Translations under genes and position numbers: made by a program
The notes under the pieces: generated by a model
The model's input: the letters and a program-made list of their open reading frames with translations, nothing else
Told to the model about the DNA's origin: nothing
Database searches by the model: none
Source: a virus
IMG/VR virus record: IMGVR_UViG_3300046507_000356
Coordinates: 1 to 55,212 of that record
Length of the DNA: 55,212 bases
Direction: 5' to 3' (one strand)
Part shown: positions 9,758 through 53,813 of the stretch, one piece after another
Position numbering within the stretch: the first letter of the stretch is position 1
How the letters are laid out: every line of letters begins with the position of its first letter

Positions 9758-10108
9758 TTATCCGTTCGGCGCAGGTTCGAAGTCGGCGCAGTAGTCGGCC
9801 CATCGGGAGTCCATCTTCCAAGATTCTCCGCTATCCAGAAGCACGCTCTCCAATGACACAACATATCGCTCGAAACCGCTGTAGCCGCCGTAGCTGTTTT
9901 TCGCGTTCACGAAGCCGCATACAGCCCCGTCCTTCCCGACGAACTCAGTGCGGAATTTTGCAGAGTCCGGGTCTTTGAGAATTTCTTTGACTCGCTCACG
10001 CGCTTGAGCGATCAGATCCGGCTTCACCGCCGGCGGTGACTTTTGCTTTGGCGCGGCAAAGGCGCTTGGAATGACAAGCAGAGCGGCGAAAGCTATAGCG
10101 GTCTTCAT
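9758..10108 (-). CDS. Secreted/periplasmic protein with signal peptide (116 aa)
   Basis: MKTAIAFAALLVIPSAFAAP...; GAGG RBS; start moved to 10108. Confidence 0.65.
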   Translation of the reverse strand: MKTAIAFAALLVIPSAFAAPKQKSPPAVKPDLIAQARERVKEILKDPDSAKFRTEFVGKDGAVCGFVNAKNSYGGYSGFERYVVSLESVLLDSGESWKMDSRWADYCADFEPAPNG

Positions 10109-10185
10109 GTGGGCCTCGGTGATTAGTGGCGCATGTTGCGTTCTAGCATGATACGCCACCGTTTGTCGCGGAGCCTCTCCAATTC

Positions 10186-10941
10186 TCACAGCCGCCCGGT
10201 CACAACTCGGCCCGGCTGATAGACGACGCGTCCGACAATGTCGCACTGCCCGCTACGCATGTTAATGGGTCCGAAATCCGGATTGAGCGAGTGGAGATAC
10301 CATTGGCCGCCCTGGTGAAGCAGTTGCTTCACGCACGCCTCGCCATCAAAGTTGACCGCATAGACCTCTCTACTGATTGGCCGCTTGTCTGCAGTGTTGA
10401 TGACTACGACGTCATCCTCGAAGAGCATAGGCTCCATGCTGCAGCCTGCAACTCGCATCGCGAGCAGCTGGGCCGGCGACAGGTTGTGCTTCTCGATCAC
10501 GGCGCGTGGCATCGGAAGAACCCCGCCATCTTCACGTTCCGGCTCCGTCTCGAAGCCGGCCACGCCAGCGTGCAACTTGAGTTTTACGAACCGGATCGGG
10601 ACTGTATCCGGTTCGTCGCCAACGCGGATCGGCCGAGCATCAGGGAAGAGCGATAGCGCCTTTGCGACGGCAGTGTGGTCAGTGGTGCCAGGCTGTTGGC
10701 TCTGCATAGCGCCGACCATCGATGCCGGTAACCCGACGCCGGTTACCTTCGCGATGGCCATGAGTTGCTTGAGGTTAGGACTGTGCCGCATCGTCTCCCA
10801 TCCAGAGATGTTCGCCTTCGTATAGCCGCGGTCGTCGCCCAGCTCGCGCGCAAGCTCAGCCCCAAGGCCTTCTTGCGATAGGCCCGCAGTCTTCCGTGCC
10901 TGACGGATCCAGTCCGCTAAAAGTTGTTTAAGATCATCCAT
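10186..10941 (-). CDS. CI/LexA-like repressor: N-terminal HTH plus C-terminal S24 peptidase domain (251 aa)
   Basis: HTH LSQEGLGAELA...; S24 motifs AGCSMEP (Ser) and ACVKQL (Lys). Confidence 0.85.
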   Translation of the reverse strand: MDDLKQLLADWIRQARKTAGLSQEGLGAELARELGDDRGYTKANISGWETMRHSPNLKQLMAIAKVTGVGLPASMVGAMQSQQPGTTDHTAVAKALSLFPDARPIRVGDEPDTVPIRFVKLKLHAGVAGFETEPEREDGGVLPMPRAVIEKHNLSPAQLLAMRVAGCSMEPMLFEDDVVVINTADKRPISREVYAVNFDGEACVKQLLHQGGQWYLHSLNPDFGPINMRSGQCDIVGRVVYQPGRVVTGRL

Positions 10942-10983
10942 ACGAGCAGTATAGAAAGGTTGAGTGCAAAGGTACAGAATTAC

Positions 10984-11013
10984 TTGACCTTGCTCAACGA
11001 GCAAATCTATACT
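10984..11013 (+). promoter_or_regulatory. Rightward sigma70-like promoter TTGACC-18-TATACT
   Basis: -35 at 10984-10989, -10 at 11008-11013; the -10 is fused to the LexA box. Confidence 0.5.
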
Positions 11014-11029
11014 GTATGAACATACAGTG
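11010..11029. promoter_or_regulatory. LexA (SOS) box TACTGTATGAACATACAGTG
   Basis: CTGT-N8-ACAG (11012-11027), near-perfect palindrome. Confidence 0.75.
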
Positions 11030-11058
11030 TTTCAGGCGTACAATAGTAGATGAGGGGC

Positions 11059-11343
11059 CTAGCGTTTTCGGGTTGGGCCCAGGGCATCGATGATGGTTTG
11101 GACCATCTGCTGCGTTTTCTTCTGGTCGGCCCTGAGTTGCCGGTGTTCCTCGCGAAGACCTCGAATCTCGGCCAGGAGAGTTGCAAGAGAAGCGCCGCCA
11201 GACATGGCCGTACAGCGAAGGATGATTTCGTCATTCATCGAGTGATCCTCGCGATCGGCGGCTTCTTTGAGGTCGGCGTGCAGTTCGGCGGGGAGACGCA
11301 TCGCGGTCTTGATAGGGGGCTTCTTAGGCGGCTGTTCTTTCAT
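11059..11343 (-). CDS. Arc/MetJ-family ribbon-helix-helix DNA-binding protein with coiled-coil tail (94 aa)
   Basis: MRLPAELHADLKEAADREDHSMNDEIILR matches the Arc-domain pattern. Confidence 0.8.
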   Translation of the reverse strand: MKEQPPKKPPIKTAMRLPAELHADLKEAADREDHSMNDEIILRCTAMSGGASLATLLAEIRGLREEHRQLRADQKKTQQMVQTIIDALGPTRKR

Positions 11344-11530
11344 GCGCGCGATTCTTGCGCGTTTCGGAACAGAAATGTTGTGAGTGCCATACAAACGATG
11401 GCACTATTCTCGCACAAGCTGGACGAGAGACCGATTGTTACATTGATCCGCCCGCTATGTTTGTAGTGCTAGGCTAAGACTTTGTTACAGTATGCAGAAC
11501 AAATAGGCCGTGAAAGTCCCTCTGTTCTGT

Positions 11531-11554
11531 TGATGTAGGATGTATCCTACGTCA
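11531..11554. promoter_or_regulatory. 24-bp palindromic operator TGATGTAGGAT-GT-ATCCTACGTCA within candidate promoter TTGATG-17-CATAAA
   Basis: 11-bp arms with one mismatch; upstream of ORF 11582. Confidence 0.5.
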
Positions 11555-11581
11555 TAAAGTGGCCAGTAGACTTGCAAAGGA

Positions 11582-11785
11582 ATGAAGATGCCAGACGAGA
11601 CGATGCCGACATTGGTCATTGCGACCGAAAATGACAATGATGAGTTTCAGTTAACGAGCCAGGAGCGCCGGCTGTTGTCGAATTTCCGCTCGATGAAGCG
11701 CAGTGCGCAGTCCGTATTCATCGAAATGTCCGAGAACTTCAAGCGTACGATCCCGGCCGAGCCGGTCAAGCTCCGCTTACTCTGA
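11582..11785 (+). CDS. Hypothetical acidic small protein (67 aa); 3' end overlaps the convergent repressor gene by 9 nt
   Basis: ORF track; AAAGGAATGAAGATG context. Confidence 0.55.
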   Translation: MKMPDETMPTLVIATENDNDEFQLTSQERRLLSNFRSMKRSAQSVFIEMSENFKRTIPAEPVKLRLL

Positions 11786-12259
11786 ACGTCCGATAAGTGT
11801 GGCGTCGCTGTATTCCGCCGCAGCTTTGCAGGCGCCGTAGATCATCAACTGGCCCTCGTGGCTCGCTCGACGGTATAGTTCAAGGATTATCTTCTCTCGC
11901 GCATTGAGCCGTTCGAGAGTGGTTTCGGAGGGCAGGGACGCGTCCTCGAGATAGTCGGCATCGCGGCCAACCGCTTTGCTTCTCGGTGCATCAAGCGTTT
12001 TCCCATACGCCGCTATAGGCTCAGCAACTCCAACTGTGGTTGAGTCGACTTCCTTTGCTTCGCCTTGACCATTCGCCAGCCAGGCTGGATTGACATCAAG
12101 GGCCGCAGCAATGTCTACGATCCGGCGCGCGCTCGCCCGGATGCCTGATTCCAAATTCCCGATAGTGCTCTGCGTGACTCCGCTCAGCTTCGCAAGTGAA
12201 GCTTGGGTTAGCCCTTTCTGTTCTCGGGCCCAGATGAGTCGTTTTGCCAATGTATCCAT
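11777..12259 (-). CDS. XRE-family HTH repressor without a peptidase domain (160 aa from ATG 12259; alternative ATG 12277)
   Basis: LTQASLAKLSGVTQSTIGNLESG HTH; divergent from the cro-like gene across the operator pair. Confidence 0.8.
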   Translation of the reverse strand: MDTLAKRLIWAREQKGLTQASLAKLSGVTQSTIGNLESGIRASARRIVDIAAALDVNPAWLANGQGEAKEVDSTTVGVAEPIAAYGKTLDAPRSKAVGRDADYLEDASLPSETTLERLNAREKIILELYRRASHEGQLMIYGACKAAAEYSDATLIGRSE

Positions 12260-12283
12260 ATCACGAATGTAATACATAACACA

Positions 12284-12297
12284 ATCACGTTGGTGTT
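12284..12297. promoter_or_regulatory. Operator OR-a (ATCACGTTGGTGTT)
   Basis: 13/14 match to the shared motif. Confidence 0.6.
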
Positions 12298-12323
12298 GAC
12301 GGTCCAAACACGAACGTGATATT
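12296..12323 (+). promoter_or_regulatory. PR-like promoter TTGACG-16-GATATT
   Basis: Overlapped by both OR sites; the -10 ends 8 nt before the cro-like ATG. Confidence 0.5.
12307..12320. promoter_or_regulatory. Operator OR-b (AACACGAACGTGAT)
   Basis: Identical to 8091-8104. Confidence 0.65.
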
Positions 12324-12331
12324 GTTTGCCC

Positions 12332-12598
12332 ATGGATACGCAAAAAATCACGTCGGACCTGTTGAAGTCCGGACTTACTCAGCAAGAGCTGGCCGATCTG
12401 GTCCCGTGCGGGCAATCGACGATTGCTGCGTATTTGTCGGGAGCCCGCGGATCGAGACCATCCAAATTCATCGGCGACCGACTCGAGGAGTTGCATGCCG
12501 AACGCTGCGCTAACGCTGCTTGCGACTCGCCAAACCGCCGCGCTACAGACCCCAGGCCAGAAGAAGTGGGCTTGGCGCCGGAGTCTCCGAGCAGTTGA
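12332..12598 (+). CDS. Cro-like HTH protein (88 aa)
   Basis: LTQQELADLVPCGQSTIAAYLSG HTH; first gene of the rightward operon. Confidence 0.7.
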   Translation: MDTQKITSDLLKSGLTQQELADLVPCGQSTIAAYLSGARGSRPSKFIGDRLEELHAERCANAACDSPNRRATDPRPEEVGLAPESPSS

Positions 12599-12789
12599 TC
12601 CGCCCGCCGCGCCCCGCAGTAGACCGTAACAACGCCAGCACCGAGTTGCAGAGGCACAGCGACCAGATCGCAGTTCATCAGTACAAAGGCGGCGTTTGGC
12701 ATGTTGGGTTCCCGGGTTAGCGAAGTTTCGATGCAAGCATTTTCTCAATAACAAGTTTCAAAAACATCATTCTTTCTTGAGGTCAGAGC

Positions 12790-13242
12790 ATGAACGCCAA
12801 AGACGCCTTTCACCAATCCGTCCACTCCGCACCTGGCGGATGCGTCGCTCTGGCTGCTCGCTTGGGCATGTCGCCCACGATCCTGCGGAACAAGGCCAAC
12901 CCGAACAACGACGCCAACGTCGTGACGATCGACGACATCGAGCGAGTGATGTCGCTGACTGAAGACTACTCCGTCCTGCACGCCCTGGCGGAGGCACATG
13001 GCTTTGTCTTGACCAAGCTCGAAGACCAGCCGGCATCCGACATGGGTGTGCTGGAAAACGTCACGAGCATCTGGCAGCGCCTGGGCGACGTCGCCAACGA
13101 AGTGCACAAGACGCTCGAGGACGGTCGCGTCGAACTGCACGAAGTCGCGAAGGTGCGCGCAGCGGTCTTCAAGGCCTTCCGCCCAATGATGCAGCTGATC
13201 GAGCGCCTCAATGGCATGTCGGAGAAACGCGCTTCGCTGTAG
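12790..13242 (+). CDS. CII-like regulatory protein (phage 186 CII / CP76 type)
   Basis: LAARLGMSPTILRNKANPNN motif, ~150 aa, positioned after cro. Confidence 0.7.
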   Translation: MNAKDAFHQSVHSAPGGCVALAARLGMSPTILRNKANPNNDANVVTIDDIERVMSLTEDYSVLHALAEAHGFVLTKLEDQPASDMGVLENVTSIWQRLGDVANEVHKTLEDGRVELHEVAKVRAAVFKAFRPMMQLIERLNGMSEKRASL

Positions 13243-27022: not shown

Positions 27023-27098
27023 GCGGGCGTAGCTCAGTTGGCAGAGCGCGATCCTTCCAAGTTCGATGGCGTCGGTTCGAGCCCGACCGCCCGCTCCA
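27023..27098 (+). tRNA. tRNA-Gly (anticodon UCC), 76 nt with encoded CCA
   Basis: Manual cloverleaf: acceptor GCGGGCG/CGCCCGC, D arm GCTC/GAGC, loop CT-TCC-AA, T arm GTCGG-TTCGAGC-CCGAC; one T:T mismatch in the anticodon stem. Confidence 0.8.
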
Positions 27099-53235: not shown

Positions 53236-53265
53236 TTGCTGTTGAGCCCACGCAGGCTCTATACT
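53236..53265 (+). promoter_or_regulatory. Promoter TTGCTG-18-TATACT
   Basis: Same -10/LexA-box fusion as at 11008-11029. Confidence 0.5.
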
Positions 53266-53281
53266 GTACAAATGTACAGTA
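53262..53281. promoter_or_regulatory. LexA (SOS) box TACTGTACAAATGTACAGTA
   Basis: CTGT-N8-ACAG (53264-53279), near-perfect 20-bp palindrome that contains the ATG at 53272. Confidence 0.8.
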
Positions 53282-53562
53282 TCGTTAAAAGGCTGCGCGA
53301 GCGCGGCCGTCGCCTTCATAACCGCGAGATATCCGCGTTGCCCGGAGTGCGCGGAGAGATGGTTGTGGCGATATGCGGATTCGCACCGGAGGCGAAGATT
53401 TACGAGCCCAACGACCAGCAGCGGAGGCCGCTCATCCCCGAACTGCAAAACGTCCAGCTGCTCACGATGACGGCGACAGGTATGCTGCTGTATGGAACAG
53501 AGTGCGCGCAGGACGGCGCCGAATATGTTCAGGAATGGTCAGTTCGGATACTCCAGGAGTAG
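53272..53562 (+). CDS. LexA-box-controlled small protein (96 aa), candidate SOS-induced antirepressor
   Basis: ATG 6 nt after the -10 hexamer (possibly leaderless); alternative internal start at 53359. Confidence 0.5.
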   Translation: MYSIVKRLRERGRRLHNREISALPGVRGEMVVAICGFAPEAKIYEPNDQQRRPLIPELQNVQLLTMTATGMLLYGTECAQDGAEYVQEWSVRILQE

Positions 53563-53697
53563 CCAAATCCGTACTATTGGGAAAACCTATCGACCATGCA
53601 ATCAATGACTTACGAGCGCGATCCGTAAATTCAATAGTACAGTTCGCATTGCGTAAGCCATTGATGAAAAAGCAAAAAAGAGAGGTGGAGCACCTGC

Positions 53698-53742
53698 CTT
53701 CTAAGCTGAGGGTCGCTGGTTCGAACCCAGCTGGGCAGGCCA
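53698..53742 (+). other. attP core: 3' half of a tRNA-Arg(UCU)-like gene (anticodon loop to CCA)
   Basis: CTTCTAA loop, GCTGA, GGGTC, T arm GCTGG-TTCGAAC-CCAGC, acceptor TGGGCAG-G-CCA; no matching 5' half upstream; adjacent to int. Confidence 0.7.
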
Positions 53743-53813
53743 CCTGGCCTAGGTTTCGGCGATAGCAACCACTTCAAATTTTGCTACTCACGGGGCGTTT
53801 TGCTACGCGCTAT

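Follow-up and report, generated by a model that had tools for sequence, protein, structure and literature searches.

Which gene does a LexA-type promoter serve when it reads first through a gene on the opposite strand? This question is raised by a locus in positions 1 to 55,212 of the virus record IMGVR_UViG_3300046507_000356 (IMG/VR), a stretch of 55,212 nucleotides (nt) that is referred to here as the window and that represents a temperate phage, with int/xis genes and a tRNA fragment at 53.7-55.1 kb. In this locus a CTGT-N8-ACAG box is joined to a rightward promoter (P1). To its left, on the minus strand, is a gene for a protein with a helix-turn-helix (HTH) and a Peptidase_S24 domain (the HTH-S24 gene); to its right, also on the minus strand, is a gene for an Arc-like ribbon-helix-helix (RHH) protein (arc). 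Beyond arc follow a small open reading frame (ORF) of 67 amino acids (aa) on the plus strand, orf67, and a cI gene that converges with it. The true immunity switch of the phage is this CI, which has no S24 domain, together with Cro and CII, and the region of the LexA box adjoins the switch to the left. In our main model, to which we give an even chance, P1 is a promoter repressed by the host LexA, its relevant output is orf67, and orf67 is a candidate antirepressor of the non-cleavable CI.

The core of the box (CTGTATGAACATACAG, 11012-11027) was found to be a perfect palindrome in which six of the eight central bases are A/T, and the full box agreed with TACTGTATATATATACAGTA at 16 of 20 positions. 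P1 is composed of a -35 element TTGACC (10984-10989), an 18-nt spacer and a -10 element TATACT (11008-11013) on the plus strand. It matched 10 of the 12 consensus positions, was the top promoter-like site within 10100-12700, and was likewise called in the related loci L012, L013 and L017. The left half of the box overlaps the -10 element, itself identified by consensus match only, and transcription from P1 would be expected to start near 11020, within the box. The box is separated by 69 nt from the ATG of the HTH-S24 gene and by 32 nt from the stop codon of arc. An earlier note on this DNA had described a canonical LexA box overlapping a rightward promoter, and both were located exactly where that note had placed them.

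Counted as a bare pattern, CTGT-N8-ACAG is unremarkable in the window, with 2 matches in 55 kb compared to 0.5 expected and at least 2 in 11 of 100 shuffles; the box is significant because it is conserved. Nine related loci, with S24 proteins that are 78-99% identical, were found to carry an identical box with its offset unchanged (-86 relative to the S24 ATG). Column identity was determined from an alignment of seven non-identical sequences of the window clade. The -35 element, the -10 element and the box were 99-100% identical across these seven, and the 42 nt proximal to the S24 gene were 96% identical, whereas third-codon positions were only 56% (S24) and 59% (Arc) identical. Within P1, the variable columns were confined to the spacer and both hexamers were invariant. 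Because the hexamers and the box are invariant and the third-codon positions have diverged, the site is under selection, and invariant hexamers around a variable spacer are, as judged by this alignment, the signature of a working promoter. The site thus has these properties of an E. coli-type (Gamma/Betaproteobacterial) LexA operator: a CTGT-N8-ACAG palindrome with an A/T-rich centre, overlap with a -10 element and conservation above the neutral level. Proteins related to those of the window phage were found in Massilia genomes (Oxalobacteraceae, Betaproteobacteria), and the host is probably a Massilia-like soil betaproteobacterium. Most Betaproteobacteria use a CTGT-N8-ACAG LexA motif; the motif was confirmed here for E. 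coli only. Two further elements close to the box were considered and dismissed. A second, tandem promoter (TGAACA-16-TACAAT, 11017-11044) has a -10 element that is not conserved and is probably due to chance, and an 8-mer at ~11044 (ATAGTAGA) that is similar to a half-site of the P22 Arc operator is not conserved either.

Loci fetched with the orf67 family and with the S24 protein fell into four architectures. In L100, a moron gene (minus strand) is followed by a perfect box (CTGTATGGATATACAG), an orf67 homologue (plus strand) 98 nt further on, a converging gene for an S24-less CI, and Cro; this locus has neither arc nor an S24 gene. In L101 and L102, the order is a lipoprotein gene (minus strand), a perfect box 22 nt past the arc stop codon, arc (minus strand), orf67 (plus strand), CI (minus strand) and Cro, with no S24 gene. 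The window clade has an order like that of L101 plus the HTH-S24 gene to the left of the box; arc is thus found in this clade and in L101/L102. In L041 and L043, a CI gene on the plus strand is faced by an ORF of 59-68 aa on the minus strand, followed by a perfect box, an RHH gene and a gene for an S24 domain only, such that the box occupies the divergent region between the operon of the last two genes and the small ORF. The small ORF of L041 overlaps the 3' end of the CI gene by ~60 nt. The small ORF of L043 is separated from CI by an ORF of 106 aa, and the box of this locus is just downstream of a minus-strand TTGCCA-18-TATTCT aimed at the small ORF and ~29 nt upstream of that ORF. A metagenome scan revealed no further lineage. 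With ~0.009 perfect boxes expected per kb, the finding of such a box within so short an interval in each of five lineages is therefore not due to chance. On the evidence of gene order, the conserved unit is a LexA box followed by a small ORF (orf67) that converges with the gene of an S24-less CI, with arc and the S24 gene as optional insertions.

The earlier note had stated that the phage combines a self-cleavable repressor, a non-cleavable one and a promoter gated by the host LexA, and the window clade does have a predicted self-cleavable HTH-S24 protein, an S24-less CI and a LexA-gated promoter. It had also counted the back-to-back S24 gene as part of the wiring, a view that the lineage comparison does not support: L101/L102 keep the box, arc, orf67 and CI without it, and L100 keeps the box, orf67 and CI with neither arc nor S24. 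As the HTH-S24 gene is absent from L100-L102, which retain the remaining unit, it is by the same comparison a clade-specific add-on outside the conserved unit.

Rightward of P1, no conserved plus-strand ORF was detected before orf67, in agreement with the claim that the first convincing coding sequence on that strand begins at 11582. A 138-aa plus-strand ORF (11050-11466) was rejected as a product of P1: its substitutions peak at the third position of the Arc frame, L011 (99% identical) has ATC at the position of its ATG, and no family matches to it were found. The orf67 gene displayed coding periodicity (0.75, 0.79 and 0.62 for the alignment phases). An AAGGA at 11577-11581 is properly spaced for the second ATG (11588), at which several homologues start, and this ATG is likely to be the real start, for a product of 65 aa. 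By profile search, the orf67 family was found to comprise 38 clusters (E<=1e-3), essentially all of 56-117 aa, with the motif LT..ER.LI.NFRAM...AQ; the sole match that was not small was a borderline one to a repetitive protein of 1218 aa (E=9e-4). The AlphaFold2 (AF2) model of orf67 has a disordered N-terminus and two confident helices (residues 26-37 and 40-56). No family match to orf67 was found in Pfam or PHROG, and no match by tblastn in 50,697 phage records.

The CI of the window matched HTH families only, with no Peptidase_S24, in Pfam. Its gene is divergent from cro, is paired with Cro and CII, and is overlapped at its 3' end by 9 nt of the converging orf67. Lemire et al. (PMC3121763) showed or argued that the S24-less class of CI depends on LexA-controlled antirepressors (Gifsy, 186, N15); orf67 is proposed as an antirepressor partly because CI is of this HTH-only class. 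A search with the CI protein in cultured phages gave only distant matches, either S24-bearing or HTH-only, of which the best full-length match was that of Pseudomonas phage VB_EV13, in a different neighbourhood. The C-terminal motif of CI, TLERL-x-x-x-EK-x-h-L-x-LYRRA (TLERL...EK..L.LYRRA...G), is kept across differing N-terminal DNA-binding domains. Three unrelated N-terminal domains, each with its own type of Cro, share this motif, and they are always found beside orf67; in the CI of L001 (2153-3175), the C-terminal E-K-R-h-L-x-L-Y-R-R-A motif occurs twice in tandem. The divergence of orf67 follows that of the CI tail: both were ~80% identical in L012/L015, and both were ~35-58% identical in L001/L013/L017/L018, with S24 at 78-82%. 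When the first helix of orf67 was compared to the tail motif of CI by hhalign, P values of 0.011 and 0.006 were obtained, at probabilities of only 4-6%, and the small ORF of L043 matched its own CI by BLASTP (E=0.009) with the same helix picked. A paralogous relationship of orf67 to the CI C-terminus, for which BLASTP gave no match and hhalign was weakly positive, is thus taken as a lead only.

According to our main model, LexA would occupy the -10 element and the start site of P1 in the lysogen. Upon DNA damage LexA would be cleaved and P1 would fire rightward, generating a transcript that runs antisense through all of arc. Either collision or RNA pairing would damp Arc as well as the read-through that reaches the S24 gene. 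The transcript would then pass a hairpin at 11383-11405, only a weak terminator in the window phage, and reach orf67, 568 nt downstream; the two-helix protein would probably engage CI through the conserved module at the CI C-terminus. A palindrome at the putative own promoter of orf67 co-occurs with the S24 protein, predicted to be RecA-cleavable (both described below), so that orf67 may be under two SOS-sensitive locks in the window clade. Given the 9-nt tail-to-tail overlap of orf67 with cI, transcription beyond orf67 would also enter cI antisense. No consensus intrinsic terminator was called between P1 and the cI gene in the window, consistent with the unterminated transcription proposed in the earlier note. 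That note had suggested for the promoter a role in SOS-triggered interference with, or antisense control of, immunity genes. The antisense geometry over arc is real, but the lineage comparison points to the small ORF as the likely output of P1 and to interference as an accessory; antisense interference with the immunity genes is plausible as a secondary effect. The box, the promoter and their conservation, the order and strands of the genes, and the recurrent placement of a LexA box ahead of the small ORF across several lineages are directly established; from these we infer the start of transcription, the antirepressor activity of orf67, read-through from P1 and the pairing of individual proteins with palindromes.

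Several observations weigh against this model. The similarity of orf67 to the CI C-terminus is statistically weak (the hhalign probability of 4-6% given above), and the orf67 profile search matched small proteins and no repressor-sized HTH protein. No homology of orf67 was detected to Tum, AntC, GfoA/GftA, Ant or Coi, nor to the small ORFs of L041/L043, which are positional analogues only. Consensus rightward hexamers were not readable around the box in L100 or L101, and distant relatives of orf67 reside in other contexts without a LexA box. The hairpin at 11383-11405, with a good T-run in L017 and a partial one in L013/L015/L018, could halt transcription from P1 short of orf67 in some relatives. 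In addition, a promoter of its own is plausible for orf67, such that P1 may be unneeded, and the real antirepressor could be the product of a second LexA-gated gene (53272-53562).

Among the alternatives, it is possible but unlikely that the sole product of P1 is a cis-antisense RNA of ~390 nt (~11020 to 11410) under LexA control, which terminates at the hairpin and silences arc, with orf67 reached indirectly (if Arc represses it) or never. The arc gene (285 nt) lies wholly antisense within the predicted P1 transcript, and two diverged lineages have the box abutting the arc stop codon, at distances of 32 nt and 22 nt. The Arc-like ORF matched Pfam Arc at E=4.7e-4 with 20.4 bits, a score equal to the gathering cut-off, and the Arc-like PHROG at E=3.7e-4. 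Phase identities across it were 0.59, 0.90 and 0.84, with the Arc third position least conserved, and by this measure the minus-strand Arc frame is the coding frame. The hairpin (AGTGCCAT-N7-ATGGCACT) lies in an invariant stretch upstream of arc and is unique in the window; it is positioned exactly at the exit of the transcript from arc, is kept wherever arc of the window type is present and was found only there, and folds better as RNA than shuffled sequences do (z-scores of -2.4 to -3.6). In L017 it was called as terminator-like (10 pairs plus a T-run). The T-run 3' of the hairpin is good only in L017, however, and is partial in L013/L015/L018 and poor in the window; the tail that follows is ATTCTCGC in the window and ATTCTCGC or ATTCGC.. 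in L001/L011/L012, and no terminator was called in any of these four. Conservation of the arms is at the level of sequence, and compensatory changes were not seen; a protein site would account for this equally well as an RNA stem. Moreover, L100 has the box and orf67 but no arc, so arc is not the primary target in every lineage. We therefore regard the 11383-11405 element as primarily a candidate Arc operator and at most a leaky terminator on the plus strand.

A quite unlikely alternative, compatible with our main model, is that the true SOS antirepressor is the 96-aa protein encoded at 53272-53562 and that P1 and orf67 are accessory or related to superinfection. This gene follows a LexA-gated phage promoter (53260-53281) absent from the earlier note: a second perfect box (CTGTACAAATGTACAG, 53264-53279) overlaps a TATACT at 53260-53265, and the ATG of the gene (53272) lies inside the box (TATACT-N6-ATG), implying a leaderless and LexA-gated mRNA. 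The overlap of box and -10 element (TATACTGT) is common to both boxes of the window and to 23 of the 29 loci homologous to the second, and the perfect box is kept at -8 of the ATG in 23 of these 29. Similar to tum in 186, the gene is at the prophage end beside the att/int region. Homologues are of 96-101 aa with a conserved N-terminus (MYSIVKRLR), and the protein falls in phrog_5560, the function of which is not annotated. By contrast, the moderate-confidence, all-beta model of the protein had no meaningful match in the PDB, no Pfam match was found, and there is no linkage of the gene to CI. The L101 phage (same contig as L095) has a degenerate box at this gene and a perfect one on the orf67 side.

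A more elaborate scheme, which we consider rather improbable, is a layered SOS gate of a kind not yet described, in which LexA-gated antisense RNA silences arc and reads into orf67, the S24 protein guards the orf67 promoter, and orf67 mimics the C-terminal oligomerisation helix of CI; two SOS sensors, the host LexA and the S24 repressor of the phage, would thus act on one 65-aa protein.

The guarding by the S24 protein, which also enters our main model, is proposed from a palindrome, GTAGGA-N4-TCCTAC (11535-11550), that abuts a -10-like TAAAGT on the plus strand, 20-odd nt before orf67 (11555-11560), for which most relatives have TATAGT. Its arms were conserved and its centre variable in all eight aligned sequences, and it is unique in the window. 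We read 11535-11560 as a putative promoter by which orf67 could be expressed and repressed on its own. The palindrome was present in every locus with an HTH-S24 gene and absent from L100-L102 and L041/L043, which, although few independent lineages are involved, suggests that the self-cleaving S24 protein guards the proximal promoter of orf67 through this site. The HTH-S24 gene product matched Pfam HTH_3 and Peptidase_S24 (E=1.8e-21). Its catalytic residues are kept, with CSM aligned to DSM and VKQ to VKT of M. tuberculosis LexA (Ser/Lys dyad), and this lambda CI/LexA-like protein is predicted to be self-cleavable. Its distant homologues are classical CIs divergent from Cro. The gene itself does not have the divergent cro and shared operators of a lambda-type master repressor: there is no cro on the P1 side, where the first plus-strand gene is orf67, and the Cro/CII pair belongs to the S24-less CI. 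A minus-strand TATACT (10953 to 10948) is located 6 nt before the S24 ATG, with no Shine-Dalgarno sequence, and is conserved in all relatives; this suggests that the HTH-S24 mRNA of this phage is leaderless, a feature that resembles lambda cI expressed from PRM.

It is very unlikely that the box serves the leftward genes, with LexA blocking read-through from the arc promoter into S24 and genes downstream or tuning a divergent S24 promoter and the rightward promoter incidental, as the position of the box in the arc-S24 intergenic space, the conservation of the whole 90-nt S24-proximal region and the lack of a detected minus-strand consensus promoter for S24 (for which co-transcription with arc is possible) are outweighed by three other observations. 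The box centre, at ~78 bp from the S24 ATG on its upstream side, is too distant for a promoter at TATACT-N6-ATG to be occluded. Invariant hexamers with a variable spacer are the pattern of a plus-strand promoter. Finally, L100-L102 have the box without S24, and in L100 no gene that could carry leftward transcription through the box is present upstream of it.

The wiring of this locus had not been recognised from lambda, P22 or 186 in the earlier note. Its logic nonetheless follows that of 186 p95-tum, N15 antC and Gifsy gfoA/gftA, in which a non-cleavable repressor of ~150 aa is combined with a LexA-controlled antirepressor (PMC3121763). The layout is most likely a new arrangement of this known strategy, with at most the same logic and not the same protein family. 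Similar to these phages, the window has a CI of ~150-160 aa without a self-cleavage domain and a LexA box at a promoter that may express a small-protein gene; similar to 186 in particular, it has a 186-type CII (PF06892) and a LexA-gated gene at the prophage end. The candidate antirepressor orf67 has no homology to Tum, AntC or GfoA. The antirepressor genes of 186, N15 and Gifsy lie outside the immunity region (PMC3121763), whereas orf67 abuts cI tail-to-tail inside it, at 568 nt from a LexA promoter with an opposite-strand RHH gene in the leader.

Likenesses to three other types of system are more partial. The lambda PRE transcript is antisense through cro and then serves as mRNA for cI; PRE is activated by CII and favours lysogeny. 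In a similar manner, P1 runs antisense through arc and then would serve orf67, such that one firing would lower a regulator and raise an antagonist. Unlike PRE, to which it has no sequence relationship, P1 would be derepressed by LexA cleavage and would favour induction. In immI, a second immunity region of P22 (mnt, arc, ant and the sar antisense RNA), RHH repressors guard the antirepressor gene and control is not by LexA. The window region likewise has a putative RHH gene, a candidate antirepressor and a convergent antisense promoter, a likeness that rests on the threshold-level Pfam Arc match. It differs from immI in that no Ant/KilAC/BRO domain was found in the module (Pfam/PHROG), arc is followed by the S24 gene, and the antisense transcript covers arc itself and not the ribosome-binding site of ant. 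Finally, SinI of Bacillus is a small helical protein that neutralises the XRE-type repressor SinR via its oligomerisation module. AimX of arbitrium phages is a small antirepressor that blocks repressor oligomerisation (bioRxiv 10.1101/2025.11.23.689978). The SinI/SinR and AimX/AimC pairs are likened to orf67 and CI by the proposed mimicry, the resemblance of orf67 to the CI tail being faint and not statistically secure, and they differ from orf67 in that its input signal would be LexA and SOS.

If our main model is correct, the strategy of LexA-controlled antirepression extends from enterobacterial phages (186, N15, Gifsy) to phages of soil betaproteobacteria and is run there by an unrelated family of very small proteins. 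The induction circuits would be modular, with a bare form (L100), a form with an embedded antisense RHH gene (L101) and a form with a self-cleaving repressor in addition (window). The locus would also be a natural case in which a damage-gated promoter has two effects, antisense silencing of a repressor gene and expression of the antagonist of that repressor. For S24-less CIs with the LERL..EK..L.LYRRA tail, orf67 provides a candidate inactivator. The coordinates of the features are collected below.

Table. Positions of the features discussed in the 55,212-nt window, with the basis of each assignment.
Feature	Position	Strand	Basis
HTH-S24 gene	10186-10941	-	Pfam HTH_3 + Peptidase_S24
P1 (TTGACC-18-TATACT)	10984-11013	+	consensus match, conservation
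LexA box TACTGTATGAACATACAGTG	11010-11029		CTGT-N8-ACAG core 11012-11027
Arc-like RHH gene, 94 aa	11059-11343	-	Pfam Arc, PHROG
Intergenic stretch with two palindromes (11383-11405, 11535-11550)	11344-11581		each unique in window
orf67, small protein	11582-11785	+	coding periodicity, protein family
XRE-type CI without S24, 160 aa	11777-12259	-	Pfam HTH only
Cro	12332-12598	+	Pfam
186-type CII	12790-13242	+	PF06892, E=2e-36
Second LexA-gated unit, 96-aa gene	53260-53562	+	box and -10 overlap, homologues

At the DNA level, the window had no similarity to cultured phages, and no known RNA families were detected in 10800-11900 at E<=1. The arc gene (ATG at 11343) has no Shine-Dalgarno sequence, and an AAGAAT is located 7 nt upstream of it. 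Between CI and Cro (12262-12330), three ATCACG-type half-site repeats were observed, among them the inverted pair AACACAATCACGTTGGTGTT / AACACGAACGTGATATTGTT, and these repeats are likely to be the CI/Cro operators. On reading the region, no ATCACG-type sites were noticed near P1, arc or orf67, for which no pattern search was run.

Distant genes of the orf67 family were found in L103-L106, L109 and L110, with no LexA box nearby in any of these; they form tandem pairs except in L104. In L104, such a gene is beside that of a 151-aa protein with two related copies of the motif, and the neighbouring gene looks like an HTH-S24 repressor gene. In L103, L105, L106, L109 and L110, the orf67-family genes are downstream of genes that by eye look like the BRO-N/KilA/Rha type. 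The S24-domain-only proteins of L041 (3956-4414) and L043 (3932-4417) are encoded just downstream of the RHH gene and are without a DNA-binding domain. Their catalytic Ser is replaced by Gly (GMEPML compared to CSMEPML in the window), and they thus look like pseudo-peptidases that have an RHH protein as partner.

A fragment similar to the 3' half of a tRNA (53680-53745; T-arm GCTGGTTCGAACCCAGC plus acceptor end) separates the 96-aa gene from the integrase gene. ARAGORN did not call this fragment, which probably represents the attP core. Inside the phage, at 27023-27098, there is also a complete tRNA-Gly(TCC).

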